Position numbers and translations under genes: made by a program
The notes under the pieces: model-generated
The model's database searches: none
What the model saw: only the letters and a program-made list of their open reading frames with translations
What the model was told of the DNA's origin: nothing
Assembly: GCA_934168365.1 (NCBI GenBank)
Contig: CAKPNJ010000006.1
Location: 937-64,936, forward strand
Origin: an uncultured Clostridia bacterium
GTDB lineage: Bacteria; Bacillota; Clostridia; TANB77; CAG-508
Length of the DNA stretch: 64,000 nt
Direction: 5' to 3'
In this document: positions 843 through 27,816 of the stretch, piece after piece
How positions within the stretch are numbered: position 1 is the first letter of the stretch
Layout of the letters: each line of letters starts with the position of its first letter

Positions 843-1378
843 AATGCTGTACCTTTCTTTGGAACAAAATATTTACGCATGTCATTTCCTTCTAGTTTTA
901 GCAATTCTATTTTGTTTTTTATTCCTCCACCATATCCTGTTAAACTTCCATTTGTTCCAACTACTCTATGACATGGTATTATAATGCAGATAGGGTTTCA
1001 GCCAACTGCCCCGCCTACTGCTTGTGATGACATTCTTTTCAAGTTTCTTTTTTTAGCAATTATTTTTGATATATCATTATAGGTTACAACTTTTCCATAT
1101 TCAATAGAGTTCATTGTATCAATTACTTCTTGTCTAAAAGGAGTTAAGTTTTCTATTTTATATTTTGGTATAAAATTAGGATTTTTACCACTAAAATAAA
1201 TGTCTAGCCATTTACTCGTTTCTTTAAAAATTTCTAAATTCTTTTCTTCACAATTTACTGTGTGTTTAGAAGAATCTCTTGAATCTTCAAACCATAAACC
1301 TGTTAGGTATTCTCCATCGCTATTCATAATCATATTTGAAAAGTTTTCTGGAGTTTGATACACATATTTATATGTCAT
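839..1378 (-). pseudogene. ogt: methylated-DNA-protein-cysteine methyltransferase (Ogt/MGMT) interrupted by an in-frame TGA
   Basis: The 126-aa ORF ends ...[10 protein letters not shown] at the TGA (998-1000). The same frame continues for 52 codons as [25 protein letters not shown]..., the MGMT PCHR active-site region, down to the TGA at 839-841, which overlaps the tag start. Confidence 0.75.
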
Positions 1379-2140: not shown

Positions 2141-2747
2141 TTACTTTTTTAGTCCTTGATTATTTTTATTTTTTTCAGAATTATACACATATCTATAAAT
2201 TTCTCCCCATGAATTTACTTCTTTTAAATACTTATTTTCTTCCAACTTTTGTTTTTTTACATCTCTTAGATATAAAGTATTAACAAAATTATCTGATAAT
2301 TTTTTACATATCAAGTAATTATCATCTATCATTAAATCAATTTTTTCTTTTAGGCATATCTGTAATTTGTCTAAAACTTTCCAATAATATTTATCAAACT
2401 TCAAATTCTCTTTTTTTAATCTTTCTTCAGCTATTTTTTGCATTTCTACATTGTCATATCCTCTTGATGAAATGATTATAAGTTTATGTCCATTTTCTTT
2501 CAATAATTTAATAACTTCTTTAGCTCCGTGGCATAATGTTAACTATTTTAGATACTTGTAAAAAATATTTTTTTATAAATTTTTCACTTATATCTTTATT
2601 CCATCCGTATCTTTCTTCTAGGTTAAATTTATTTGTATTTAGAATTCCCTTGCCATTTAACTCTAGCAAATCATATAATTCTGCTCTAGTTCTTAATTCT
2701 TTTTCAAAATCAAGTAGTACTCCATCTACATCAATTCCAATTTGCAT
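2141..2747 (-). pseudogene. HAD-superfamily 5'(3')-deoxyribonucleotidase (NT5C-like), frameshifted
   Basis: ORF 2520-2747 gives IGIDVDGVLLDF (HAD motif I) and ends NIMPRS*. ORF 2141-2503 gives ...GAKEVIKLLKENGHKLIIISSRG... IDLMIDD (motifs II-IV) in a different frame. The second frame stays open upstream to 2543, so a +1/-1 shift near 2523-2545 splits one roughly 195-aa protein. Confidence 0.65.
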
Positions 2748-2784: not shown

Positions 2785-3429
2785 TTACAATTCCATGAAA
2801 TCTCCCAATGTCAATTGTTGAGGTTCGCTATATTTTGTTTTTATTTTCGCAATATTTAATAACTCATCCAAATATATTATCTCATGCTTTCCTTTTTGTA
2901 GTTCAAGTAATTTTAAAAAGACTTCTGCTGTTAAAAAGCAATCAGAAAGAGCTCTATGCCTATTTTCTGGGATTCGTAATCCCAATGTGCTTGCCAAAGT
3001 ATCTAATTTGTAATTTGACAATTTTGGTAAAACATGTTTGGCTAATAAAATAGTATCTATTATTGGTGTTTTAGCTATTCCTTTACATTCATCTGTATAA
3101 TGAGATAAAATATTAGCTTCATATTTAGCATTTTGTGCAATAAATACATAGTCTTTTTTTGAACAAGATTTATCAATTATTCTCATTGCTCTTTTAGCAT
3201 CTATACCATGCATTAAATCTTGTTCTGTTATACCTGTTTGTGAAGTATCAAAACGCGTTAAGTGTAAACCTTCTGGTGGCTTAATCAGCCAATCAATTGA
3301 TGCATTATTATCTATTTTATTTTGTTTTATTCTTAATATTCCTACTTCTATTGGCTCTGGTGGTCTTCCTTTTGGAGTAATCGTTTCAAAATCTATTACT
3401 AAAAATTCTGTATCATCTATTAATTTCAT
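2785..3429 (-). CDS. DnaQ-like 3'-5' exonuclease (DEDDh family, Pol III epsilon-like)
   Basis: 214 aa; the FLVIDFETI (Exo I) motif and the HRALSD (Exo III) motif. Confidence 0.75.
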   Translation of the reverse strand: MKLIDDTEFLVIDFETITPKGRPPEPIEVGILRIKQNKIDNNASIDWLIKPPEGLHLTRFDTSQTGITEQDLMHGIDAKRAMRIIDKSCSKKDYVFIAQNAKYEANILSHYTDECKGIAKTPIIDTILLAKHVLPKLSNYKLDTLASTLGLRIPENRHRALSDCFLTAEVFLKLLELQKGKHEIIYLDELLNIAKIKTKYSEPQQLTLGDFMEL

Positions 3430-3437
3430 TATAAAAT

Positions 3438-3755
3438 CTAATCCTCCTCAACATCTTTTAAAAAGGTTTTGTTTTTGAAAGCTCCCTTTCTATTTCTCTT
3501 TTTGATTCTAACTTGTTCCACTTCTTCCATACTTGTACCTCTATATTCAAGTATTGCATAAATAACTTCCATTACATCTGCCATTTCTTCAACGCTATAA
3601 TCAGCTAAATATTCTTCTACTTCTTCTTTTAATTTTTTGTCTAATTCTTCTCCATATCTTTTATCGTCTAAGATTTCATATGTTACTTTGCAACCTTTAT
3701 CTTCCATTATTTTTACATTGTTATCTCTAATTAACTTATTATATGTATATAGCAT
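3438..3755 (-). CDS. MazG-like all-alpha nucleoside triphosphate pyrophosphohydrolase (house-cleaning NTP-PPase family)
   Basis: 105 aa; the YTYNKLIRDN N-terminus and an acidic EExxE core typical of small MazG/HisE-like NTP pyrophosphatases. It overlaps the DegT gene stop by 1 nt. Confidence 0.6.
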   Translation of the reverse strand: MLYTYNKLIRDNNVKIMEDKGCKVTYEILDDKRYGEELDKKLKEEVEEYLADYSVEEMADVMEVIYAILEYRGTSMEEVEQVRIKKRNRKGAFKNKTFLKDVEED

Positions 3756-4852
3756 TAATTTTCCTCCTTTACTATTTGATTTATTTTTGAAATTATTTCG
3801 TTCATTTTATCTCTATCCATATTTTCCATTAAGGATAAAGCAACTATCTTGCTAAACAATTTATGACTATTAGGTGTTTTCATTCTATCATAACTAACTA
3901 AGTTTTTACAATACTCTTGTATTACTTTCCTTTCATTCGCAGGAATTAATCCGAAAGTTCCTGTACTGTTTATTACTCTATTTTTATTTAATTTCTTTGC
4001 AATATCTAGACCTTTATCATGTAAAAAAATTGGTGAAAAATAATTAGAATTCTCATTGTCGTAATAATTGTATATGTTTACTCCTGTTATATTTTTAATT
4101 TGTTCATATATATATTTAGTTTGATTTTTTCTAAAATTAATTTTATCTTTTAAATCTTTTAAATTATATATACCTAATAGTGCTTGCATCTCAGTTATTC
4201 TATAATTCCATCCAATTTCAGAGAACGACTTACTTGTGTCTCTTATATTAGTACAATGATTTCTCAATAATCTACATCTTTCAGCTAATTCATCGTCATC
4301 GGTTAATATAAATCCACCTTCACCAGTTGCTAATATTTTACCATTTTTCATACTAAAGCATCCAAATTTCCCAAAAGTTCCCAAATATTTGTTATTCCAC
4401 TTTGAGCCATGAGCTTGACAAGCATCTTCTATAATTTCTATATTATATTCTTTAGCAAAATCAATTAATTTGTCTAAATTATAACTGCACCCCCATAAAT
4501 AAACAGGTATTACTGCTTTTGTTTTATTAGATGCTTTTCTTTTCAGATCATCATAATCAAAATCAATATTATTTTCTTGACAATCAACAAATATAGGTAT
4601 AGCCCTTTGGTACAATATAGGAATAACAGACATTATAACAGCATTAGCAGGTACTAATACTTCATCTCCCTCTTTAATATTCAAAGCTGCTAATGATAAA
4701 TGTATTGCAGATGTACCATTTGCTACAGCTATGGCATTTTTTACTGAAAAGAAATCTTTTAATTTTTCTTCAAAAATTGGAATATATTTATCTGGCTTAC
4801 AAGGATTAAATTCATTTTTTATTAAATTTTCTATATTAATAATATCTTTCAT
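3755..4852 (-). CDS. DegT/DnrJ/EryC1/StrS-family PLP-dependent aminotransferase
   Basis: 365 aa; the motif FSMKNGKILATGEGG (PLP-lysine followed by GEGG) and overall family similarity. Confidence 0.8.
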   Translation of the reverse strand: MKDIINIENLIKNEFNPCKPDKYIPIFEEKLKDFFSVKNAIAVANGTSAIHLSLAALNIKEGDEVLVPANAVIMSVIPILYQRAIPIFVDCQENNIDFDYDDLKRKASNKTKAVIPVYLWGCSYNLDKLIDFAKEYNIEIIEDACQAHGSKWNNKYLGTFGKFGCFSMKNGKILATGEGGFILTDDDELAERCRLLRNHCTNIRDTSKSFSEIGWNYRITEMQALLGIYNLKDLKDKINFRKNQTKYIYEQIKNITGVNIYNYYDNENSNYFSPIFLHDKGLDIAKKLNKNRVINSTGTFGLIPANERKVIQEYCKNLVSYDRMKTPNSHKLFSKIVALSLMENMDRDKMNEIISKINQIVKEEN

Positions 4853-4867
4853 AATAGCCTCCTTAAT

Positions 4868-5836
4868 TTACAATATTTCATCAAAAGCCATTAATTGCCA
4901 CATATTTACACAATCCTCTGAAAAATTATGGCATTCTTTTATTTTTAACTTTTTATTAATAAATATATCTTCTAAATTTGAATCAGATAATCTAATTGAT
5001 GTAGTTTCTCTAGGTATCATTTTACTAGATGGGCAAGCATGTATACTACCATCAGGTGTAATAAAAAATAGACTATCTCCAGCAAAGCAATTATTAATAC
5101 AGTTATTATAATGTTTTATTGATTCCAACATTTTTTTAACATAATCTTTATTAGGTAATTTTGTTTTTGAAACATTACTATACATTCTCTGTATTATTTT
5201 TTCTAATTCGATGGCATCATTTTCATCTAAAGTCAATTCTTTATATAATTTTTCGTCTTCATTTAAAAATATAGGTTGAAAAATAAAATAATCAGACTTT
5301 AAATCTGTTACAAATTTATAAGTTTGTTCTAAATCTTTCAAATTCAATTTTGTTAAGACCGTATAAATTCCTATTTTTACATTTGAATTTTCTTTTAAGA
5401 TTTTTATTCCTTTTACAACTCTATCAAAGCCATCATTTGCTGGATATTGTCTATATGTATCATTATATTCTTTTTTATATGAGTCTAAAGAAATTGACAG
5501 TGCATCTACTTTACTCTCTATTATATCTTTATAGCATTTATCTATTAAATAGCCGTTGGTGCATAATATAACTTGGATATTATGTTCTTTAATCTTCTTA
5601 ATTATTTCTAAAGTTTTTATATAATTGGATAAAGGTTCTGCCCCCGCAATAAAAATTCTTTTTACATTATATTTTTCTAACCTTTTTATAAAATCAAAGA
5701 TTATTGCATCATCAATATCTGCATTATTAGCTGTATTTTTATTATTTATAGGATTATTATCTTCTGAAAAGTCCAAATAACAATACTTACAATGAAAACT
5801 ACATTTAGAACTTAAAGCCCATAAAATTGTATTCAT
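4868..5836 (-). CDS. radical SAM enzyme with a C-terminal SPASM/twitch Fe-S domain
   Basis: 322 aa; CSFHCKYC (CxxxCxxC) at residues 11-18, a GAEPL SAM-binding motif, and a C-terminal Cys-rich region (CINNCFAGDSLFFITPDGSIHACPS, CHNFSEDC). Confidence 0.8.
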   Translation of the reverse strand: MNTILWALSSKCSFHCKYCYLDFSEDNNPINNKNTANNADIDDAIIFDFIKRLEKYNVKRIFIAGAEPLSNYIKTLEIIKKIKEHNIQVILCTNGYLIDKCYKDIIESKVDALSISLDSYKKEYNDTYRQYPANDGFDRVVKGIKILKENSNVKIGIYTVLTKLNLKDLEQTYKFVTDLKSDYFIFQPIFLNEDEKLYKELTLDENDAIELEKIIQRMYSNVSKTKLPNKDYVKKMLESIKHYNNCINNCFAGDSLFFITPDGSIHACPSSKMIPRETTSIRLSDSNLEDIFINKKLKIKECHNFSEDCVNMWQLMAFDEIL

Positions 5837-5839
5837 TTT

Positions 5840-6505
5840 TTATCTCCTTTCATCTAAATTTTTTTCTTCTATAACATCTTGCATTCTGTGCAATATTTGC
5901 TCTGAATTCTCTTTGCCAATATCTAATTTTATAAATCTTTCTGGGTGTATGTCTGCATAAATTAAGTAAAATTTATCAACTGCTTTTAACAACTTGGCTT
6001 CATCTGGTTTATATGGTATGCCATCTCTCTTTTCTGCTCTACTAATGGCTAAGTCAGGATTTCCATATAATAAAAATGTCTTTTCTGGTAATCGTCTAAA
6101 ACTACCAGCAAAAGAATATATCTTTTCTGCTATTTCTAATGGATTTCCACCATTTTTCTGTGCAATTAATATGGCCTGATATAAAGCTATTGTGTCTACA
6201 CTTCTATCTTCTATTACTGTTTTACCTGATTCTAATGCTTTTTTTATTGTACTTTCATATTTGTACATTGACCTTGACAATAGTAGCATTGTTTCCGTCA
6301 ATGGTACCCCCATATTAAAAAATCTATCTTTTGTATGATAAAGTGCTGAAAAAATTTTTTTATTAAGTCCTTCTTGAGCTTCATTAAAAATTTCTTTTAC
6401 AAATAAGACATCATCTCTGTTTTTAATACTTTTTTCTAGCTGTTCTCTATAAAAAGTTTTTCCTGTTCCACTTATTCCTTCTAAACTTAATAATCTACCA
6501 TTCAT
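5840..6505 (-). CDS. thymidylate kinase-like (d)NMP kinase
   Basis: P-loop EGISGTGKT and a DRSVDTIALYQ motif, matching the Tmk DRxxxSxxAYQ pattern. The start is set at MNGRLL (6505) because a GGAGG RBS sits 7 nt upstream. The longest ORF would begin with TTG at 6541. Confidence 0.7.
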   Translation of the reverse strand: MNGRLLSLEGISGTGKTFYREQLEKSIKNRDDVLFVKEIFNEAQEGLNKKIFSALYHTKDRFFNMGVPLTETMLLLSRSMYKYESTIKKALESGKTVIEDRSVDTIALYQAILIAQKNGGNPLEIAEKIYSFAGSFRRLPEKTFLLYGNPDLAISRAEKRDGIPYKPDEAKLLKAVDKFYLIYADIHPERFIKLDIGKENSEQILHRMQDVIEEKNLDERR

Positions 6506-6518
6506 TTCTTCTCCTCCT

Positions 6519-7004
6519 TTACATTTCCCATGGAAATACAACCCAACCTCTTACACTTTTTCCTATGTATTCTATTTCATCCTTATAGTTATTTTTATTA
6601 CTTTTTTCCCAATTTTCCTCATTAACTATGCAAATTGCTGTTCTTATTTCTTTAGGTTTCCATTTTTTTACTTCCTCTTTAATTTTTTTAATTGTTGCGC
6701 CACTTCCTAATATATCATCAACGATTAAAACTTTTTTTCCTTTAATGTTTGAGAGATTTATATTTTTATCAATTATAGGTTCCTGCTTAATGGCATTTAT
6801 TTCATCGTTTAGTGTCTCTATTGATTTAATATTTTCAACATTTCTTACATTTAATTTATGGGCTAAAATGACACTAGGAATCATTCCTCCTCTTACTATT
6901 GAAATTATTATTTCAGTTTTGTAAGTTTTTTCTATATTACTACCCATATATTTAATTATATCTGTGATTTCTTTCCAACTTATATAATTAATATTGTTAT
7001 TCAT
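6519..7004 (-). CDS. type I phosphoribosyltransferase (purine/7-deazapurine PRTase-like)
   Basis: PRPP-binding motif VLIVDDILGSGAT. The start is set at MNNNINY (7004) because of a GGAGG RBS, and it overlaps the queC stop as ATGAATAA. Confidence 0.7.
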   Translation of the reverse strand: MNNNINYISWKEITDIIKYMGSNIEKTYKTEIIISIVRGGMIPSVILAHKLNVRNVENIKSIETLNDEINAIKQEPIIDKNINLSNIKGKKVLIVDDILGSGATIKKIKEEVKKWKPKEIRTAICIVNEENWEKSNKNNYKDEIEYIGKSVRGWVVFPWEM

Positions 7005-7602
7005 TATTTCCTCCAACATTTTTATTTTTTAAATATTTTTCCAATCCGTTAAATTTCATTTTACAAGAAAGACATTTTTTACAATGCTTATCTTGTCTAT
7101 TCCAACAAGAGAATGTTTTATTTTCTATAAATTCTAAGTATCCCAATTTATCAGCAATTCCCCATATTTCAGCTTTATCCAATTTTATAAGTGGTGCTTC
7201 TATATTAATATTGTTTCCAATTGCTATCTTTATCGTAGTCTTTAAGTTTTCAAAAAATTCTATTGAACAATCTGGATGACTACTATTTCCAGCTAAACCA
7301 CATATAACATTATTGATGCCATTAGCATTAGCATAAATTGTTGCTAAAGAAATCAAAATTAAATTTCTTCCTTCAAAATTATTACTTTTAGAAATGTCTT
7401 GTAATACACCAATGTCATATATTTTATGTTCAATCTCTAATTCTTTACAAATCTGCTTTGCACATTCTATATCTTTTTTATATTTGTTATTATATATAAA
7501 TGATATTGCATGAACATTCTCTTTTCTAAATTTATTAATTGCCATTAATAAACAAGTTGTACTATCTTGTCCTCCTGATAAAATAACTAATGCATTATCC
7601 AT
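6997..7602 (-). CDS. queC: 7-cyano-7-deazaguanine synthase QueC (PP-loop ATPase)
   Basis: 201 aa; the ALVILSGGQDSTTCL PP-loop and a C-terminal Zn-binding CxxC...C cluster (CWNRQDKHCKKCLSC). Confidence 0.8.
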   Translation of the reverse strand: MDNALVILSGGQDSTTCLLMAINKFRKENVHAISFIYNNKYKKDIECAKQICKELEIEHKIYDIGVLQDISKSNNFEGRNLILISLATIYANANGINNVICGLAGNSSHPDCSIEFFENLKTTIKIAIGNNINIEAPLIKLDKAEIWGIADKLGYLEFIENKTFSCWNRQDKHCKKCLSCKMKFNGLEKYLKNKNVGGNNE

Positions 7603-7617
7603 ATTTTCCCCCTGAAT

Positions 7618-8286
7618 TTAAAAAATATTGTATTTAATATTATTGTCGTATACATCTTCATTTTCTATTTGTTTAACCTTACTAATTACTTTATATGTAA
7701 TCGGTGTGGCAATAATTTCTATTAATATTTTAAATATAGCTTGGTTTATTATCATATTTATTAGTACTTCGTTTGGAATTTGTCCCAAAAAAGCAATTGT
7801 AATAAAGATTATAGTATCTATTGCCTCTCCAAATATTGTCGAAGTTATAGTCCTTAGTGCTAAAAATTTCCCTTTTGTTGCTACCTTTAATTTTGATAGT
7901 ATAATTGAGTTCAAGAAGTTTCCAAATAAAAATCCAGCTAATGAAGCTACTAAATTTCTTGGTGTTGTACCTAAGACTATGTTATATTCATCTGAATTTT
8001 CAAAAGTAACTGGATATGGTAGTTTTAATACTAGCATAAATATTAACACCATTATTAAATTACATATAAAACTTAACCAGATTATTTTTTTGTTTTTATT
8101 AAAACCATAGACTTCTGTAAATATATCACTTAAAATATATGTAAATGGAAATACGATTACTGCACCTGTTAAAGAAATATTACATATAGATATTAATCTT
8201 CCTGCTAAAATATTAGAAATCAAAATCAAAGTAATATATAAACTTGTAAATATTAAAAATATTTTTGATATATTATCTTTTTTCAT
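7618..8286 (-). CDS. yhhQ: YhhQ/DUF165-family queuosine-precursor (preQ0/preQ1) transporter
   Basis: 222 aa, multi-TM; the conserved VFPFTYILSDIFTEVYG motif of the YhhQ family, and a GGAGG RBS. Confidence 0.75.
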   Translation of the reverse strand: MKKDNISKIFLIFTSLYITLILISNILAGRLISICNISLTGAVIVFPFTYILSDIFTEVYGFNKNKKIIWLSFICNLIMVLIFMLVLKLPYPVTFENSDEYNIVLGTTPRNLVASLAGFLFGNFLNSIILSKLKVATKGKFLALRTITSTIFGEAIDTIIFITIAFLGQIPNEVLINMIINQAIFKILIEIIATPITYKVISKVKQIENEDVYDNNIKYNIF

Positions 8287-8337
8287 ATAACCTCCATATA
8301 GTTTTTAATAAAATTATTTTATTTGACCATATAAAAA

Positions 8338-8369
8338 AGAAGAAATAAGTATAAATACTTTTTCTTCTT
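8338..8369 (-). promoter_or_regulatory. leader hairpin followed by a U-run (attenuator or terminator-like) in the 5' UTR of the yhhQ operon; possible riboswitch expression platform
   Basis: Minus-sense AAGAAGAAAAAGUAUUUAUACUUAUUUCUUCUUUUUU, lying between the promoter and the RBS. Confidence 0.3.
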
Positions 8370-8385
8370 TAGTGACTCTTTTAAA

Positions 8386-8414
8386 ATTATACATTATTTT
8401 CCAATATTTTTCAA
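8386..8414 (-). promoter_or_regulatory. sigma-A type promoter for the yhhQ-queC-...-HAD operon
   Basis: Minus-sense TTGAAA, a 17-nt spacer, then TATAAT, about 100 nt upstream of the yhhQ start. Confidence 0.45.
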
Positions 8415-8482
8415 GTACTTTTGCGTTTTTTTACATATTAGGCAAAATAGATAATTTTATAAATAGCAAATTTTTTTATTTT

Positions 8483-9478
8483 TTATGTAATATATTTTCT
8501 ATGTGAATTTTTTACATTATTTTGATTTACCATAGCATATTCCATTGTGGTATCTATTTTTATATGCCCTAATAATTTTTGCACTTGTTCAATTGGCATT
8601 CCTTTGTCTATTGCCATTGTAGCCATTGTTCTTCTAAATTTATGTGGATGTACTTTATTTATATTTGCTTTTTTTCCTAGATTTCTAATAGCAATCTCAA
8701 TTCCTGATATTCCTAATCTGTTATATGGTTTTATAAGAGATACAAATAGTGCTTCATTGTCATCAGTTCTTGTTTCAAGATATTTCTTTATATACATTTT
8801 ACTCTTTGCACTAAAATAAACCTCTCTTTCACTATTACCTTTTCCTAAAACAATACAACTTCTTTCTTGAAAATTTATATCTGATATATTTAGTCTTGTA
8901 ATTTCTCCAACTCTCATACCAGTTGATATTAATAGTTCTAATATCGCTAAGTCTCTTACATTTGAACAAGTATCTCTTAACTTTTCCAAATTTTCATCTG
9001 TTAGTGTTTCTTTAACTCTTCTAGTTGTTTTTACTTTATGAATCCTTCTAACTGGACTTTTTACAATATAATCTTCGTTTTCCAACCAAGCAAAGAAACT
9101 TGATAATGTTCTTCTTATATTGTATATTGTTACCATACCTGCATTTGAATTACTTTTATAATCTGATAAATAGTTTCTTAATATTTCAGTAGTAATTTCA
9201 TTTATTGGAAGATTTACAGTATCAAGCATTTTATTTATATTATCTCTGTAGTAATTTAAAGTTCTTGTTGAGCACCCTTCAATTTCCTTAGATGCTATAA
9301 ATCTTTTTAAAATATCTTCATTATTTTTTTGTGTTTCTTTGCATTTAGCTTGTTCTTTTATTTCTATTTAATAATTTAAGCATATTTCTATAAGTATTTC
9401 TCTTAATTTTATTCTTTGGTTATCATCTAAGAAGTCTGCCATTTTAGTAGTTACTTCTTTGATAAATAACTCTTTCAC
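8483..9478 (-). pseudogene. tyrosine-type site-specific recombinase/integrase with an in-frame TAA in the N-terminal domain
   Basis: C-terminal catalytic region HPHKFRRTMATMAIDKG...LGHIKIDTTMEYA (ORF 8483-9229). The same frame continues upstream through KRFIASKEIEGCSTRTLNYYRDNINK, crosses a TAA at 9368-9370, and reaches a GTG at 9478 that has a GGAG RBS. Confidence 0.6.
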
Positions 9479-9505
9479 TTACATTTTCTCCTTTCTTTGT
9501 AATTA

Positions 9506-9539
9506 AAAGAAGAATAGATTTTTATTTCTATTCTTCTTT
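9506..9539 (-). terminator. intrinsic terminator-like hairpin downstream of the anti-sigma gene
   Basis: aagaagaatag-loop-ctattcttctt, flanked by an A/T run. Confidence 0.4.
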
Positions 9540-9544
9540 GGCTA

Positions 9545-10402
9545 TTATTCATTTACTATATAACCTGTTGTATCTGGTTTTACAATATCGCTATCTTTTA
9601 CAATATTAAATTTATATTCATAATCAACTACTGCATCATTTTTTCTTGTTATTTCTTTATTTGATTTTTCTATATTTCTAACTGCCAATCCTGTTTCTTT
9701 ATCTATATACCTTTCATAACTATTTCCTTTAATAACATAACACTCTTTTCCATTACAATAAGTAGAATCAATTCCTGTTATTAAGGCATATTGGAGATTT
9801 GCTAATATTCCATCTGCTACATAAGTTACAGGCAATATATATCCACCTATCATTGTTTCTGCATTTAGTACATATTTTTTTCCCTCTGATTCTGTCATAA
9901 ATAGTTGTTCTTCGCCTTTTCTATAATAAGTTATTTTTTGAATATTACTTCCATTAACAACTTTAGTAAGTGTAGTCAAGTAATCTTCTCCTTTATTATA
10001 ACTTTCTGTTATAGTTAAAGTATCTCCTCGGTATGAATATAATCTCACATAATAATTATCGTTTATTTGGTTTTCAGTTGCCTTTCCAGAAAGTGAAGAC
10101 ATTATAATTGTTCTTCTTCCTACAAGTATTACATATATCAAGATTATAATTAATAATGCATATTTTAAAATTTTTAATTTCTTATTATATTTTTTAATAT
10201 ATTTTACTTCTCTATCATCTCTTTTTGTATTACTTACTTTAATTTCTTTTTGCATATTTTCTAATACTTTTTGACATTCAGGACACACTTTTAAATGTTC
10301 CTCAATAAAACGATTTGTTTCTTCATTTGTTAAATTTTCAATGTAATTTGGCAATAAATCTTGAACAATTTTACAATTTGTTTTCTCTTTCATATTAATC
10401 AA
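9545..10402 (-). CDS. anti-sigma factor (zinc-finger, single TM, extracytoplasmic C-terminal domain)
   Basis: N-terminal HLKVCPECQ zinc finger, a TM segment, and an 8-nt overlap with the upstream ECF sigma gene. Its C-terminal domain is shared with ORF 27899-28609. Confidence 0.55.
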   Translation of the reverse strand: MINMKEKTNCKIVQDLLPNYIENLTNEETNRFIEEHLKVCPECQKVLENMQKEIKVSNTKRDDREVKYIKKYNKKLKILKYALLIIILIYVILVGRRTIIMSSLSGKATENQINDNYYVRLYSYRGDTLTITESYNKGEDYLTTLTKVVNGSNIQKITYYRKGEEQLFMTESEGKKYVLNAETMIGGYILPVTYVADGILANLQYALITGIDSTYCNGKECYVIKGNSYERYIDKETGLAVRNIEKSNKEITRKNDAVVDYEYKFNIVKDSDIVKPDTTGYIVNE

Positions 10403-10874
10403 CCTCCTTTAATTGATTTTTTCCTCGATAAAATGTTACTCTAGCCCAGTTTTCTGTTTTATTCAAAATAATTCCTATTTCTTTAAAACTAAGTTCTCCT
10501 GTTATCCTTAAATACACCACTTCTCTTGTTTTCTCATCTAAATACTGCATTTTTTTATATAGTGAAATCTTTTCATCATTTGAAATAACTTGTTCTTCTA
10601 ATGTATTTAATGCTTGTACATTTAATAAATTTGCTTCTTCTGTTTCTACAAACTTTTTATTCTTTCTACATTGGTCATACCAAAGATTTTTAGCAATTTG
10701 ACATAGCCATACTGACATCTTACATTCGCCCTTATATGTATCAATTTTCTTTACTGCTTTATAAAAAGTTTCTTGGGTAAGTTCTTCAGAAATATCATTA
10801 TTATGAGTTAAACAGAATAAGTATTTGTTTACTGTTTCAAAATATTCTTCGTATATTTTTTCCATATCCTGCAT
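10395..10874 (-). CDS. ECF-type RNA polymerase sigma factor
   Basis: Sigma-70 regions 2 and 4 (VYLRITGELSFKEIGIILN). The start is set at MQDMEK because an AGGAGGA RBS precedes it; the longest ORF extends to 10916. Confidence 0.75.
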   Translation of the reverse strand: MQDMEKIYEEYFETVNKYLFCLTHNNDISEELTQETFYKAVKKIDTYKGECKMSVWLCQIAKNLWYDQCRKNKKFVETEEANLLNVQALNTLEEQVISNDEKISLYKKMQYLDEKTREVVYLRITGELSFKEIGIILNKTENWARVTFYRGKNQLKEVD

Positions 10875-10968
10875 AACTTTTATCCTCCTTTGCATATATG
10901 ACGTATGAAATTTCATTTAGTTACAAAATTTCCAAAAAAATTTTGTATATTACATCAAAAATAGTGAA

Positions 10969-11256
10969 CTATTTGCTAATTAAGGTCAGCGTCAACTTAC
11001 TATTTTTATTTCTTTCTATTATTTTTCTGGCATACGAACATGTTGCTTCTAAATTCTTATTCAGTGTTTGAGCATTCTGTACAACATTTTCTACAAGCTT
11101 CTTAGCTATTCCTTGTCCTTGATATGCACTATCAACTTCTGTATGTGTTATATTCCAAGTATCATTTATTTCTTCAAAATCACATTCTCCAATTTGCTTA
11201 TCTAAATCGTATGCCATGGATCTTTTTTCTTCTCTTTTAAACACTATTTTAATCAT
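10969..11256 (-). CDS. small GNAT-family acetyltransferase-like protein
   Basis: 95 aa; the QGQGIAKKLV acetyl-CoA-binding-like motif. Confidence 0.45.
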   Translation of the reverse strand: MIKIVFKREEKRSMAYDLDKQIGECDFEEINDTWNITHTEVDSAYQGQGIAKKLVENVVQNAQTLNKNLEATCSYARKIIERNKNSKLTLTLISK

Positions 11257-11366
11257 AAATATCTTCCTCTTTAAATTTTTTCATGATATGTTATTTTTTA
11301 TAGAAGTGAAAATCACAACAATCTCCATCATATCCTAAAGTTTTGTTTCGTGAAAATCCTATTTTT

Positions 11367-11666
11367 TTACTTCTTAATTGGTAAACATTTGCAAGTTTCA
11401 ATTACAATTTCTTTTAATCGTTCCTTATTATCAACATCATCAACCAAATACATTGGCTTTGAACCATCATAAGGTATTGATTCCTGCATGTTATATTTTT
11501 TGTTGCTTTCTACCATCTTAACAAGTAACCTATTATCATATATTCCACCAAATAGTAAATTATTGTAATATAATAAATATTCTCCCATCATTGCTTTACA
11601 ATTTATATTATCTAATAAGCCTAATTGTTCTAAGATAAAATCTTTATATTCTTTTGATGTTGCCAT
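11367..11666 (-). CDS. TfoX/Sxy N-terminal-domain protein
   Basis: 99 aa; the KAMMGEYLLYYNNLLFGGIYDNRLLVK pattern of the TfoX_N domain. Confidence 0.5.
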   Translation of the reverse strand: MATSKEYKDFILEQLGLLDNINCKAMMGEYLLYYNNLLFGGIYDNRLLVKMVESNKKYNMQESIPYDGSKPMYLVDDVDNKERLKEIVIETCKCLPIKK

Positions 11667-11687
11667 AATAAGCCTCCTATAAATTTG

Positions 11688-12443
11688 TTATTTTACTTTG
11701 TAAATAGCTGTCAGATTCTTTTCGTCATCAGTATTTTCTTCTACATATAAAGTTCTTTCATATTTAAGATTATTTTTATTTAAACATAAATCTAGAAAAC
11801 ATAGGAATATTCCAATATCAATTTTATTGTAATATTTAACCATATCTATTGGCATAATGCCTCTTTTTCCTTCTTTCATATACCTATAAACCTTAAGTTC
11901 GTTTTTTAAAGAATCAACAATCCATGGTTGAGTATTACAAGCACTTGGTGCAAACCTTACAATATTTGCAATATCTAAATAATAATCTCCATTCCAAATT
12001 TCAGATAATTCTTTTCTTTTACTTTTATACATATCTTTTCTAAATTTAGTTTCCGAATCTACTTTTGCTATTGCAATCATTATTACAAAATCAAGTCCGT
12101 CTAATTGTTTTTCTTCTACCTTGCCAATGCCAAACCAAAGTGTGCCAATGTTTTTAGATACTAAATATAAATCTAGTTGTTCTCCTATATATCCTATGTT
12201 TTGTAAATAATTATCTTTCTTTTCTGAATAAAGTAAAATACAATATTCTTGTCCTCTTCTGCAATTTGTTGAATCTTTAACAATTTTCATCTTCACCTTA
12301 ATATCATCTACTAATGGAACCAAACTATTAAACTCATTTTCAATTTCTTTAAGTTCTTTATCTGTAATATGTTCATTTCCTATATTTCTAAACAAGTGAA
12401 AAGATTTTCTTTTAAAAATCATATTATATAAATCATTATTCAT
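11688..12443 (-). CDS. nitroreductase-family protein
   Basis: 251 aa; the SACNTQPW motif. Confidence 0.7.
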   Translation of the reverse strand: MNNDLYNMIFKRKSFHLFRNIGNEHITDKELKEIENEFNSLVPLVDDIKVKMKIVKDSTNCRRGQEYCILLYSEKKDNYLQNIGYIGEQLDLYLVSKNIGTLWFGIGKVEEKQLDGLDFVIMIAIAKVDSETKFRKDMYKSKRKELSEIWNGDYYLDIANIVRFAPSACNTQPWIVDSLKNELKVYRYMKEGKRGIMPIDMVKYYNKIDIGIFLCFLDLCLNKNNLKYERTLYVEENTDDEKNLTAIYKVK

Positions 12444-12494
12444 TTTTTTACCTCAATAACTTCTTCTTTATCTTTTCCACTATGATTATACAAT

Positions 12495-12526
12495 AAAAGA
12501 CAGATAGTTTCAATTATCTGTCTTTT
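12495..12526. repeat. palindromic intergenic element, family copy b (aaaagacagata-loop-tatctgtctttt); terminator-like
   Basis: 12-bp stem with a gtttcaat loop, immediately 3' of the small ORF 12531-12689. Confidence 0.55.
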
Positions 12527-12530
12527 ATAT

Positions 12531-12689
12531 TTATATATATCCATACTGCTTTCTGTTCTTTGCAAAGCATATTATACTAACTATAATTGCTAATATTTCA
12601 GCAAATACAACTGATAGCCATATTCCAAGTAACCATCCAACCATTATGCCTATTTGAGATAATAAAATAGTTTCTATATAAATATACAT
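12531..12689 (-). CDS. small hydrophobic membrane peptide (52 aa), hypothetical
   Basis: A GAGG RBS 7 nt upstream of the ATG. The product MYIYIETILLSQIGIMVGWLLGIWLSVVFAEILAIIVSIICFAKNRKQYGYI is followed directly by hairpin b. It falls below the ORF-track size cut-off. Confidence 0.3.
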   Translation of the reverse strand: MYIYIETILLSQIGIMVGWLLGIWLSVVFAEILAIIVSIICFAKNRKQYGYI

Positions 12690-12728
12690 TGTTACCTCAT
12701 TGTCTCTAAATTTCGTAAATAATTTATC

Positions 12729-13355
12729 TTAAATTTGTTCTAATTCAATTAATTCATTACCACTAAATGTTAATTTTAGTAAACATGGGGATTTTATATT
12801 TAATACTTTTTCATTATTATATACAAGTTTTACATCTTTATTTACATTACACCAATTTAATAAGAAAAACTTGATAGAGCCTCCATGACTAACTACTGCT
12901 ATTCTTTTTCCACAATATTCTTTAAGTATTTTATCAAAAAAAATATTCATTCTTTCTCTTGTCTGTTCTGCACTTTCGCCATCTGATGTTCTAAATGTTC
13001 TGTCTAGAAGCTGCTCTTGTGAAGGATCTCGAGTAGCCTTATCTTTCATAAATTCACCTAATTCTTTTAAATTTCCTAATTTTCTTTCACCTAAATCACT
13101 ATCTAAATTAAGAGGTAAATTGTTTACATTAGAAATATATTTGGCAGTTGCTTTTGCTCTAGTATAGTTACTTGACCATATTACATCTAGGTTCTGCAAT
13201 TCTTTATTTTCACTTAGTCTTTTGGCTTGTTCTTCTCCTGCAACTGATAATATTTCTTTTTCGTTAATTGATTGTGAATCTTCATTTGTATTTCTTATAC
13301 CATTTTCAGTAACAGTTTCTGCATGTCTTATTAAATAAACAATAGTGTTTCTCAT
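12729..13355 (-). CDS. histidine phosphatase superfamily (phosphoglycerate-mutase-like) protein
   Basis: LIRHAET (RHG motif) and VSHGG. Confidence 0.7.
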   Translation of the reverse strand: MRNTIVYLIRHAETVTENGIRNTNEDSQSINEKEILSVAGEEQAKRLSENKELQNLDVIWSSNYTRAKATAKYISNVNNLPLNLDSDLGERKLGNLKELGEFMKDKATRDPSQEQLLDRTFRTSDGESAEQTRERMNIFFDKILKEYCGKRIAVVSHGGSIKFFLLNWCNVNKDVKLVYNNEKVLNIKSPCLLKLTFSGNELIELEQI

Positions 13356-18001: not shown

Positions 18002-18778
18002 TTACCCTAGTGCTACATCTAAAATCATCATTATTACAAATCCAAGAGCAACTCCTATTGTTCCTATATTTGAATGTTCACCATTTTGAGATTCTGGTAT
18101 TAGCTCTTCAACAACTACATAAATCATAGCTCCTGCTGCAAATGATAATAAATATGGTAGTATTGGTACTACTGTGCTTGTAAGTAATATTGTAATAATT
18201 GCTCCTATTGGTTCTACTATGCCCGAAAGTGTTCCATACAAAAAGGCTTTTGATTTTGACATTCCTTCGCTTTTTAATGGCATTGATATAATTGCGCCTT
18301 CAGGAAAGTTTTGTATTGCAATTCCTATTGCTAAAGCAAATGCTCCTGCCATTGTTATTCCAGTATTTCCAATAAGTGCACCAGCAAATGTAACACCTAC
18401 TGCCATTCCTTCTGGTATATTGTGAAGTGTAACTGCAAATACCATCATTGTTGTTTTCTTAAGTTTTGCTTTTATTCCTTCTGTTTTATCATTATTTAAG
18501 TGTAAATGCGGAATTACACTATCAAGTACAAGTAAAAAGGCTATTCCTAGTATAAATCCAACTGCTGCTGGAATCCATGCTACTTTTCCTTGTTCACTTG
18601 CCATATCAATTGATGGTATAATTAAAGACCATATCGAAGCTGCAAGCATTACTCCTGATGCAAAACCTAATAGTAATTTTTCTACTTTTGAGTTCATCTT
18701 GTTTTTCATTAAAAATACCATTGCTGAGCCAAGTGTTGTTCCTAAAAAAGGTATTGCTAAACCTGTTACTAAATTCAT
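18002..18778 (-). CDS. zupT: ZIP-family metal transporter (ZupT-like)
   Basis: The HNIPEGMAVG and QNFPEGA motifs, and eight predicted TM helices. Confidence 0.8.
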   Translation of the reverse strand: MNLVTGLAIPFLGTTLGSAMVFLMKNKMNSKVEKLLLGFASGVMLAASIWSLIIPSIDMASEQGKVAWIPAAVGFILGIAFLLVLDSVIPHLHLNNDKTEGIKAKLKKTTMMVFAVTLHNIPEGMAVGVTFAGALIGNTGITMAGAFALAIGIAIQNFPEGAIISMPLKSEGMSKSKAFLYGTLSGIVEPIGAIITILLTSTVVPILPYLLSFAAGAMIYVVVEELIPESQNGEHSNIGTIGVALGFVIMMILDVALG

Positions 18779-27009: not shown

Positions 27010-27816
27010 TTATCCTAACGCAACATCTAATACCATCATTAAAACAAAACCAAAAATTAAACCAAAAGTAGATAAATTTTTATTGCCAATTATTGATTCT
27101 GGCAAAAGCTCTCTTGCAACTACTATTATCATTGCTCCTGCTGCAAATGATAATAAAAATGGTAACATACTTCTTATATACATTACAAGTATTGCACCTA
27201 TCACAGCTGATACAGGTTCAACTAAAGCCGATGCCTGCCCTATCATAAAGCTTTTGAATCTTGAATATCCTTCTGTACGAAGTGGCAATGATACAGCCGC
27301 CCCTTCTGGAAAGTTTTGTATTCCTATGCCAAGTGCCAACATAACTGCACCAATTAGTGTCATTCCTGGCACTCCACTTGCTATTCCTCCAAAAGCTACA
27401 CCTACTGCCATTCCTTCTGGTATATTGTGAATTGTAATTGCTGCTATTAAAAGTATGCTTCTCTTTAATGATCCTTTACCATTTATGCTTTTTCTATTTT
27501 TTAGCATTTTATCCAAGAACTTATCTGATATTAACACAAACAACCCACCTGTAATAAATCCAATAGTCGGTAACGCCCATGCTATGTATCCAAGTTCTTG
27601 TGATAAATCAATTGATGGTTCTAATAAAGACCAAAATGCTGCTGCAATCATTACTCCTGCACTAAAGCCTAATATTGCATTTAATATTTTACTATTTACT
27701 TCTTTGAAGAAGCAAACTACAAGAGCTCCTAATGCTGTTACTCCCCACGTAAATGTTGTTGCTAGTAATGCTTGAATTACTGGGTTTAATGTTTCAAACC
27801 AATCCAATTTATTCAC
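27010..27816 (-). CDS. ZIP-family metal transporter (ZupT-like), paralogue of 18002-18778
   Basis: HNIPEGMAVG and QNFPEGA; about 50% identical to the other copy. The start codon is uncertain (GTG at 27816 or TTG three codons in). Confidence 0.8.
   Translation of the reverse strand: MNKLDWFETLNPVIQALLATTFTWGVTALGALVVCFFKEVNSKILNAILGFSAGVMIAAAFWSLLEPSIDLSQELGYIAWALPTIGFITGGLFVLISDKFLDKMLKNRKSINGKGSLKRSILLIAAITIHNIPEGMAVGVAFGGIASGVPGMTLIGAVMLALGIGIQNFPEGAAVSLPLRTEGYSRFKSFMIGQASALVEPVSAVIGAILVMYIRSMLPFLLSFAAGAMIIVVARELLPESIIGNKNLSTFGLIFGFVLMMVLDVALG

Follow-up and report, generated by a model that had tools for sequence, protein, structure and literature searches.

An operon of uncultured gut Clostridia that may build a sugar-modified nucleotide from a queuosine precursor

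The window analysed here, a 64,000-nt stretch of contig CAKPNJ010000006.1 from an uncultured Clostridia bacterium (assembly GCA_934168365.1), carries on its minus strand a tightly packed trio of genes for a queuosine-precursor transporter (yhhQ, 7618-8286), for QueC (queC, 6997-7602) and for a type I phosphoribosyltransferase (PRTase, 6519-7004). A sequence-only reading of this DNA had placed the three genes at these positions, as we do, and had proposed that a 7-deazaguanine base is converted here into a free ribonucleotide by a PRTase of the ToyH kind and is then phosphorylated. Our analysis supports this proposal by a glycine signature in the PRTase, by membership of the enzyme in a family that includes a TubE orthologue, and by gene overlap and linkage; we consider it quite likely that the PRTase makes a deazapurine nucleotide. 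By gene identities and operon structure, the trio is the front end of a single longer operon. For the operon as a whole we favour, at about even chances, a reading in which it is a self-contained mobile unit that builds a sugar-modified 7-deazaguanine nucleotide analogue for biological conflict, be it antiviral or antibiotic.

The operon extends from ∼8414 to 2141 on the minus strand and comprises ten co-directional genes, which overlap or are separated by gaps of 0-37 nt and share one promoter-like site. The nucleoside monophosphate (NMP) kinase that had been seen after the PRTase gene is indeed there and is thymidylate-kinase-like, and past it lie six further genes on the same strand, which encode a radical S-adenosylmethionine (SAM) enzyme, a DegT-type aminotransferase, a 105-aa protein, an exonuclease and a HAD-like protein split into two open reading frames (ORFs). 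These further genes, which the sequence-only reading did not reach, bear on the purpose for which the nucleotide is made. In the order of transcription, the operon reads as follows.

7618-8286, minus strand: yhhQ, queuosine-precursor (preQ0/preQ1) transporter, COG1738/Vut_1 (Pfam PF02592, 1.7e-47; TIGR00697)
6997-7602, minus strand: queC, 7-cyano-7-deazaguanine (preQ0) synthase, which forms preQ0 from 7-carboxy-7-deazaguanine (CDG) (TIGR00364)
6519-7004, minus strand: TubE/ToyH-like 7-deazapurine PRTase, predicted to form a nucleoside 5′-monophosphate from base and 5-phosphoribosyl 1-pyrophosphate (PRPP) (Pfam PF00156)
5840-6505, minus strand: NMP kinase of the thymidylate kinase family, predicted to form the nucleoside diphosphate (NDP) (PF02223, 7.7e-13)
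4868-5836, minus strand: radical SAM enzyme with a twitch/SPASM-type auxiliary-cluster domain (motifs and fold)
3755-4852, minus strand: pyridoxal phosphate (PLP)-dependent sugar aminotransferase of the DegT/DnrJ/EryC1 family, predicted to convert keto to amino (PF01041, 1.8e-76)
3438-3755, minus strand: 105-aa four-helix protein, probable MazG/HisE-like nucleoside triphosphate (NTP) pyrophosphohydrolase (fold and motif)
2785-3429, minus strand: DEDDh (DnaQ/PolC-proofreading-like) 3′-5′ exonuclease (PF00929, 3e-19)
2141-2747, minus strand: HAD-like gene with a 5′-nucleotidase-type DxDGVL motif (DVDGVL), split in two frames and possibly the last gene of the operon

The ORF of the PRTase spans 6519-7019, and the ATG at 7004, which is preceded by GGAGG and matches public gene calls (161 aa), is almost certainly the true start. 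The enzyme contains the PRPP loop VLIVDDILGSGAT, and its ATG overlaps the TAA of queC as ATGAATAA, the sequence reading ...GGAGGAAATAATGAATAA; both features had been pointed out before. Its closest solved structures are the archaeal 6-oxopurine PRTases 4z1o and 1vdm (E ∼1e-14), and it scores below every cut-off for Hpt, Xpt and Gpt (PRK09177 xanthine PRTase, 60 versus 138 bits; HGPRTase, 51.5 versus 150 bits). The Asp of the PRPP loop DD-x-x-D-T/S-G (Asp137 of human HGPRT) acts as general base on purine N7. In the alignment this catalytic Asp is replaced by Gly100 (DDILGSGAT) in the window enzyme, while it is kept in the solved 6-oxopurine PRTases 4z1o, 1vdm, 4trb and 3ohp; among solved relatives, human PRTFDC1 (2jbh), a near-inactive paralogue, is alone in having Gly. 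The Gly is present in all 66 cluster-linked PRTases with a PRPP loop matched by the scan (L081, missed by the pattern, reads DDICGSG by eye), in 63 of 64 further family members, and in 15 of 15 sequences of a diverse PRTase alignment, where Asn128 is nearly invariant as well. By alignment only, Asn128 of the window enzyme falls at the position of the O6-contacting Lys of 4z1o and 1vdm. The next-nearest homologues, annotated as Hpt and ∼30% identical, have Asp in every readable loop (nine of P0064-P0073; P0068 is unreadable). A 7-deazapurine has a carbon at position 7, which is often substituted; the exchange of Asp for Gly fits an enzyme dedicated to such bases, because N7 is absent from them and Gly leaves room for the substituent.

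The same family includes the protein P0198, which carries the Gly signature and is related to the window PRTase at 22% identity (BLASTP E 7e-21; family profile 3e-30). Its gene lies in the cluster QueD-QueE-FolE-GMP reductase-PRTase-NUDIX-UbiD-flavoprotein-PfkB-MFS, which has the tubA-I gene content in near-published order, with NUDIX and UbiD swapped and one flavoprotein gene added (PMC6112128), and we call P0198 a TubE orthologue from this gene context. In vitro, TubE joins CDG to PRPP but does not accept 7-deazaguanine (PMC6112128). We infer the substrate specificity of the window PRTase from these sequence relationships.

Linkage of the PRTase gene to base-forming genes is seen well beyond the window. 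The PRTase and QueC genes overlap by 8-11 nt in the window, L007 and L009, so that the overlap is retained in relatives at 73% and 50% PRTase identity, and a PRTase-QueE overlap of 11 nt is found in Micromonospora (L015). In relatives, the PRTase gene directly follows the last base-forming gene (QueC for Clostridia, QueE for Actinomycetes) and, in addition, lies beside FolE, QueD and QueE. Since the QueC-PRTase overlap persists and the linkage of PRTase, kinase, radical SAM and DegT genes is kept across phyla, the association of the trio is not due to chance. A Gly-type PRTase also occurs in a different cluster (L012, 1953-7567), FolE-QueD-QueE-PRTase-QueC-AAA_17 kinase-Pyridoxal_deC PLP decarboxylase-dCMP-deaminase-like, which is without the radical SAM/DegT pair and represents another uncharacterised fate for a preQ0 nucleotide.

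We scanned one genome per species and found a relative of the radical SAM enzyme in 138 genomes; in the best 80 loci (L031-L110), partner genes were counted by tblastn with the proteins of the window and its relatives within 10 kb of the radical SAM gene. A DegT gene is present in 79 of the 80 loci, the exonuclease in 68, the PRTase in 67, QueE in 60, QueD in 59 and a thymidylate-kinase-like kinase in 57, followed by a second kinase of this type (55), FolE (41), a SAM methyltransferase (33), NUDIX (26) and QueC (12). YhhQ is found in four loci, all from Clostridia, and FolE, QueD and QueE substitute for it in most others. The core of radical SAM enzyme, DegT, exonuclease, kinase and PRTase is found again in at least 80 species genomes, mostly of Actinomycetes, but also of Clostridia, Ktedonobacteria and a bacterium of the candidate phyla radiation; among the hosts are Streptomyces, Micromonospora, Frankia, Nocardia, Amycolatopsis, a Ktedonobacterium and a candidate-phylum bacterium. 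The radical SAM family extends into Actinomycetes at 33-36% identity. Exact and close copies of the operon come from human-gut metagenomes and Clostridia metagenome-assembled genomes (MAGs). At 50% PRTase identity (L009-L011), the QueC-PRTase-kinase-radical SAM-DegT-exonuclease core is kept, with FolE, QueD and QueE in place of YhhQ. Many clusters have two kinases or a nucleoside diphosphate kinase (NDK), and Actinomycete versions carry NUDIX genes. The cluster is conserved across phyla, and so is the signature of its PRTase family. Among 2.9 million viral contigs, profiles of the radical SAM enzyme and the PRTase picked up nothing truly related, the lone PRTase match (L113) being PRPP-synthetase-like, and a phage origin was therefore rejected.

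Additional genes around the core differ between loci. Tailoring extras in Actinomycetes include a family 4 glycosyltransferase (GT4) with a PIG-L deacetylase and WbqC (L111, 8001-15769) and, in 11 loci, a ligase resembling PurC, the SAICAR synthetase (L099, 13587-14660). A divergent QueC-like PP-loop protein is encoded in 13 loci (L055, 12269-12991). The varied tailoring genes therefore point to a family of related, distinct products. Five minimal clusters (L047, L050, L052, L066 and L074, ∼8000-13000) comprise kinase, radical SAM, DegT and exonuclease genes, with no deazapurine-base genes within 10 kb, and their radical SAM enzymes have the motif CGSHKCKPC (CX4CX2C). Here a canonical nucleotide may be a further substrate of the sugar-modifying module.

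The base supply of the window operon is encoded by its first two genes. YhhQ matches the model TIGR00697 'queuosine precursor transporter' over its full length (125.3 bits, cut-off 50.95) and stays under the cut-off of the E. coli-type model NF008406 (56 versus 252 bits); it is the predicted base-import step, with preQ0 or preQ1 (or CDG) as predicted substrate. QueC passes the equivalog cut-off of TIGR00364 (171.3 versus 150.3 bits) and aligns with B. subtilis QueC 3bl5 (E 1.4e-36) including the SGGQDS PP-loop and the C-terminal SC..HCKKCLSC Zn-Cys motif, with an internal deletion of ∼18 residues relative to 3bl5. Membership in the QatC/Cap9-type QueC proteins was rejected, as these matches (E 3.5e-3 and 7.5e-7) are far weaker than that to the housekeeping enzyme. 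The sequence-only reading had described the trio as being without the rest of the queuosine pathway. This description stands for the 64-kb window only, in which we found no tgt, queA, queF, folE, queD or queE (translations read by eye, no HMM scan), and no QueG or QueH near the operon.

The radical SAM enzyme has the CX3CX2C motif (C12, C16 and C19) and, in its C-terminal part, C250-x12-G-x4-C268 together with C302 and C309, none of which varies among 22 diverse homologues, and the SPASM model of Pfam is matched weakly (E 0.006). With its AlphaFold2 (AF2) model (pLDDT 90.8), the top Foldseek match is BlsE (7vob, E 1e-12, TM 0.70), and the next matches are the sactipeptide synthase 5why, anSME, MoaA, CTP-bound viperins and DesII, with SuiB and PqqE also found. 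BlsE is a radical SAM enzyme that acts on the sugar of cytosylglucuronic acid in blasticidin S synthesis. A prokaryotic viperin (pVip) was rejected as identity of the window enzyme, whose match to NF038283 (80.7 versus 180 bits) covers the N-terminal 180 residues only and which has an auxiliary-cluster domain in addition. The radical SAM enzyme is predicted to generate a ribose radical and to leave a keto group.

The keto group would be the substrate of the DegT enzyme. Its PDB matches include the sugar aminotransferase 7b0m, perosamine synthetase and BtrR (2c7t), and its catalytic Lys172, in the motif K-x4-GEGG (KILATGEGG), is conserved in 72 of 79 homologues. At 79 of the 80 loci, the DegT gene lies next to that of the radical SAM enzyme. 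Because the five minimal clusters carry kinase, radical SAM, DegT and exonuclease genes without deazapurine genes, we place the action of the pair on the sugar-phosphate rather than on the base. The ribose is indicated as the site because the pair persists without deazapurine genes, because base-tailoring genes vary around it, and because there is in every case an NDK or else one kinase or two. On these grounds we hold ribose keto-then-amino chemistry to be slightly better than an even proposition.

The kinase has the P-loop GISGTGKT, matches the thymidylate kinase 3hjn of the PDB (4.5e-8) and scores 57 bits against TIGR00041, under the cut-off of 83. The best NCBIfam match of the exonuclease is the PolC exonuclease region (2e-24), and 65-68 of the 68 members of its family retain the catalytic residues D13, E15, E104, H158 and D163. 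We propose that it serves in self-protection and would remove a chain-terminating product from the nucleic acids of the producer. The family of the 105-aa protein has 4594 representatives, in which E44, E45, D60 and E63 are invariant and E48 is nearly so, and its AF2 model has a pLDDT of 97; tentatively, the protein can be read as a MazG/HisE-like pyrophosphohydrolase. For the HAD-like gene, a joined reading gives weak HAD matches (E 5e-4) under the cut-off. The identical split is found in L007 and L008, with ∼90% amino-acid identity in each half, and may reflect a recent or shared pseudogene, a two-piece protein or a programmed frameshift. Each variant of the cluster that was examined encodes an NTP or NMP hydrolase, namely MazG-like plus HAD, NUDIX, HD, or CYTH plus HAD.

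Two features upstream of yhhQ bear on the autonomy of the operon.

8386-8414, minus strand: promoter-like site TTGAAA-17-TATAAT, 5′ of yhhQ (11/12 match, joint-best on the strand with 2503-2475)
8287-8380, minus strand: 94-nt 5′ leader with two hairpins (RNA fold -19.2 kcal/mol, z = -3.1 versus shuffles)

The first site suggests a promoter, but AT-rich DNA commonly gives consensus matches, and the base composition of the window is AT-rich (∼26-30% GC), with most genes on the minus strand. In the leader, hairpin 1 resembles an AT-rich intrinsic terminator and is followed by a U-run, and hairpin 2 pairs with part of the GGAGG ribosome-binding site. The leader may act as an attenuator or a novel riboswitch. 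Rfam searches found no preQ1 or other riboswitch 5′ of yhhQ with the whole window at gathering threshold, and at E up to 10 on 8200-8560 they returned noise only, with no family and no preQ1 riboswitch. Both the promoter-like site and the leader are kept in the L007/L008 lineage (89% YhhQ identity), where the sequence diverges 5′ of the -35 box, everything farther upstream differs, and the neighbours of the unit differ too. As promoter and leader are conserved there while the surroundings change, the operon appears to be a self-contained, movable block.

An integrase gene (tyrosine recombinase) adjoins the operon in the window. L009 and L010 have a PemK toxin together with a mobile-element recombinase (a resolvase in L009, an integrase in L010). 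In L015, from Micromonospora, the operon directly adjoins BREX PglZ/PglY, and in L017 a type II methyltransferase is nearby, an unrelated defence gene like the BREX of L015. Upstream of the operon in L007 (2443-8494; a MAG with 73% PRTase identity) lie a fragment of a Gabija/PARIS-like ATPase, UzuA (Uzume, 1.6e-60), a reverse transcriptase and a DUF5131 protein with a match to the PADLOC candidate PDC-M30B, a defence-island-like setting.

The integrase of the window is XerA-like (8483-9478, minus strand); a GTG at 9478 shares the frame of the 248-aa ORF, from which a TAA at 9370-9368 cuts it off. The gene thus appears interrupted and may be a pseudogene or N-terminally truncated. Ham1, an MGMT-like gene, Tag and the integrase were rejected as parts of the system, as they co-occur with the operon only in near-identical contigs. 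The MGMT-like ORF (998-1378, minus strand) encodes 126 aa in the window and in L002/L003, compared with 179 aa in the otherwise near-identical contig L001, and is probably truncated ahead of the active-site region. The remaining genes of the window have housekeeping functions and include the spoIIIA operon, methionyl- and arginyl-tRNA synthetases (MetRS and ArgRS), GlmM and phosphofructokinase (PFK). Unrelated to the operon, two paralogues of a ∼260-aa membrane protein (18002-18778 and 27010-27816, minus strand) lie 8 kb apart and, with the motifs NIPEGMAVG and AGAMI in common, resemble metal transporters of the ZIP/ZupT type by eye.

In the pathway that we favour, YhhQ would import a 7-deazaguanine precursor (CDG, 7-amido-7-deazaguanine (ADG) or preQ0) and QueC would form preQ0. 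The Gly-type, TubE-like PRTase would then use PRPP to make the preQ0 ribonucleoside 5′-monophosphate, which the thymidylate-kinase-like kinase, with host enzymes, would carry to the di- and triphosphate. The chemistry past the PRTase step, which we infer, would begin with the twitch radical SAM enzyme taking a hydrogen from the ribose of the di- or triphosphate to yield a 2′- or 3′-keto group, by dehydrogenation or by a BlsE/viperin-style dehydration. The DegT enzyme would convert this group to an amine, giving a 3′(or 2′)-amino-deoxy or amino-dideoxy 7-cyano-7-deazaguanosine nucleotide that, if 3′-modified, would most likely be a polymerase chain terminator. Excision of the analogue from the nucleic acids of the producer would fall to the DEDDh exonuclease, and the pool of triphosphate would be kept in check or detoxified by the MazG-like and HAD-like proteins. 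That the product is a chain terminator, with immunity conferred by the exonuclease and a role in defence, is possible, at somewhat less than even chances. More tentative still, although its chance of being true is substantial, is the proposal of a new class of chemical immunity or antibiosis that reaches from Actinomycetes to human-gut Clostridia. It would turn a queuosine precursor, taken up by YhhQ or synthesised de novo, into a 3′-amino-(di)deoxy-7-cyano-7-deazaguanosine triphosphate by a radical SAM dehydrogenase or dehydratase and a sugar aminotransferase that work on the ribonucleotide itself, and its own proofreading exonuclease would let the producer withstand the poison. Among the possible roles we rank an intracellular antiviral one first and a secreted antibiotic second; the intracellular, viperin-like role is favoured by the genomic context, by a route that presses on to the triphosphate and by the fact that no exporter is conserved.

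Several points weigh against this pathway. QueC would be redundant if YhhQ imports preQ0; alternatively, CDG or ADG may be imported or host-supplied, or QueC may act on a CDG nucleotide, which is plausible because TubE prefers CDG. The fold matches of the radical SAM enzyme are at 13-21% identity and include peptide-modifying enzymes, and neither the position (2′ or 3′) nor the type of its reaction (dehydrogenation or dehydration) can be read from sequence. DegT enzymes normally use NDP-hexoses or inososes, not ribonucleotides, and to our knowledge none acts on a ribonucleotide. The 105-aa protein has no significant similarity to PRA-PH/HisE, YpjD or MazG by Foldseek or Pfam, and PDB sequence and profile searches as well as Foldseek returned only non-significant MazG/HisE-like matches, while the HAD-like gene is frame-split, its ORFs of 75 and 120 aa lying in different frames. 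The defence-island evidence is anecdotal: three loci were examined, and queries with BREX, Uzume and DUF5131 matched none of the other loci. PADLOC-DB v2 gave no system-level match and only the generic ones QueC, pVip N-terminus, DEDDh and ShosT-type PRTase.

Other explanations share parts of this evidence. The same chemistry could lead to a secreted nucleoside antibiotic if the phosphates were then stripped by the MazG-like and HAD-like enzymes (elsewhere NUDIX, CYTH and HD) and a free amino-deazaguanosine were exported to kill competitors, with the exonuclease as a classical resistance gene. Most members of the family are in Actinomycetes, and this Actinomycete centre fits such a product equally well, as does the natural-product-like variation in tailoring (methyltransferase, GT4/PIG-L/WbqC, PurC-like and divergent QueC-like proteins); a pyrophosphatase or phosphatase in each variant examined would parallel Pur7 and Pur3 of puromycin synthesis. 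The closest characterised relatives, TubE (tubercidin, PMC6112128) and BlsE (blasticidin S), are antibiotic enzymes too. However, when the flanking ORFs of ∼80 loci were clustered, the families shared by more than 14 loci included neither an exporter nor a regulator, with one ABC-transporter-like family in seven, the two kinases or NDK of many clusters suggest that the triphosphate is wanted, and the Clostridial copies lie on mobile or defence-type islands and not in secondary-metabolite regions; we regard an antibiotic as unlikely. If the radical SAM and DegT enzymes modified instead the 7-substituent of the base or another metabolite, the product would be a deazapurine nucleotide with another decoration, serving for example as signal, cofactor or storage form, rather than a chain terminator. 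The peptide and cofactor enzymes among the fold matches (5why, PqqE and MoaA), the base-directed tailoring that exists in the family (QueC, methyltransferase and PurC-like ligase) and the want of any DegT enzyme that we know to act on a ribonucleotide would agree with this. It is nevertheless improbable, given that the pair stays constant in the five loci without deazapurine genes and while base-tailoring genes vary, that the top small-molecule fold matches of the radical SAM enzyme (BlsE, viperin and DesII) act on sugars attached to a nucleobase or nucleotide, and that the conserved proofreading-type exonuclease would be left unexplained.

A modified (deoxy)NTP could also be built on purpose, by the host polymerase, into the DNA or RNA of the host itself as a protective or epigenetic mark, with the exonuclease editing its incorporation, as a nucleotide-level counterpart of the 7-deazaguanine DNA modification by Dpd/DpdA. 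7-Deazaguanines are present in bacterial and phage DNA (PMC10164549; bioRxiv 10.1101/2023.04.13.536721), and kinase, MazG-like protein and exonuclease recall phage base-replacement modules, S-2L MazZ being among the weak fold matches. We find this quite improbable: the ten products are without a TGT/DpdA, polymerase, ribonucleotide reductase or restriction domain, none of these is recurrent in the flanking genes that are conserved, viral contigs are essentially free of the family, and a nucleotide aminated on its sugar would stop extension or be poorly used as a substrate. Finally, YhhQ and QueC could serve the salvage of queuosine for tRNA beside an ordinary Hpt or Xpt. Both proteins are above their equivalog cut-offs and the closest solved structures of the PRTase are purine PRTases, but the enzyme is under all Hpt, Xpt and Gpt cut-offs and without the catalytic Asp, its linkage to QueC or QueE and to the radical SAM, DegT and exonuclease genes is kept across phyla, no tgt, queA or queF is nearby, and the unit moves as a block with its own promoter. 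Such a housekeeping role is very improbable and can be regarded as effectively excluded.

If the favoured pathway is true, the formation of free 7-deazaguanine nucleotides, so far associated with a small number of Streptomyces antibiotics, would also be a property of a cluster in at least 138 species genomes, which uncultured human-gut Clostridia feed by precursor salvage. It would add new enzymology, a radical SAM and DegT pair acting on a ribonucleotide, and a new sink for queuosine precursors, which are contested by gut microbes and host. The product would be a new natural nucleotide analogue of pharmacological interest, as 7-deaza and 3′-amino nucleosides are established antiviral and anticancer scaffolds, and a dedicated proofreading exonuclease could represent a general principle of self-immunity. 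The Asp-to-Gly signature would provide a simple sequence marker for deazapurine PRTases in genomes. We found no description of the cluster in the searchable full-text literature (subscription-only literature being outside this scope), and two surveys from 2026, one on 7-deazapurine clusters and one on the QueC family, are silent on it.

Among known systems, TubE and ToyH of the Streptomyces tubercidin and toyocamycin clusters are closest at the level of the PRTase; as in the window, the PRTase is of type I, and the TubE orthologue shares the Asp-to-Gly loop. In these clusters the PRTase is encoded beside genes that lead from GTP to CDG. For ToyH, preQ0 is reportedly the proposed base. In contrast to the window operon, the tub and toy clusters encode GMP reductase, adenylosuccinate enzymes, a UbiD decarboxylase and a major facilitator superfamily (MFS) exporter, none of which is found among the operon products or their conserved neighbours, whereas tailoring in the window comprises a kinase, a radical SAM enzyme, a DegT enzyme and an exonuclease, the base is imported by YhhQ, and the host is a gut Clostridium. 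The pVips likewise combine a radical SAM enzyme with an NMP kinase in mobile or defence contexts and make a ribose-modified NTP chain terminator; the N-terminal half of the window enzyme matches pVip models and viperins are among its fold matches, but it differs in its Cys4 auxiliary-cluster domain, its aminotransferase and exonuclease partners and its dedicated supply of a non-canonical base.

Pairs of radical SAM and DegT-type enzymes, such as BlsE/BlsH, DesII/DesI and BtrN/BtrS-BtrR, form or use a keto function on a sugar and exchange it with an amine. BlsE and DesII match the fold of the window radical SAM enzyme and BtrR matches the window DegT enzyme, although these pairs act on hexoses or cyclitols and not on a ribonucleotide, and identity is 13-20%. 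In puromycin synthesis, Pur10 oxidises the 3′-OH of ATP, Pur4 transaminates, Pur7, a NUDIX enzyme, removes pyrophosphate and Pur3 phosphate, with 3′-amino-3′-deoxy-ATP as intermediate. The likeness lies in the logic: keto-then-amino chemistry on the ribose of a triphosphate, a DegT-type aminotransferase, and a pyrophosphatase and phosphatase that limit self-poisoning. The puromycin route differs in its NAD-dependent oxidation in place of a radical SAM step, and the window operon would add a 7-deazaguanine base and an exonuclease. YhhQ and QueC are bona fide members of the queuosine salvage families, the precursor being diverted here, on our reading, to a free nucleotide and not to tRNA or a protein conjugate. 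DpdA of the Dpd system and of phages is a transglycosylase of the tRNA-guanine transglycosylase (TGT) family, a domain present in no product of the operon. The nucleotide-forming step is already known in kind from TubE and ToyH; what appear to be new are the pairing of a radical SAM enzyme and an aminotransferase directed at a ribonucleotide, the dedicated exonuclease, the salvage-fed Clostridial form and the Asp-to-Gly signature.

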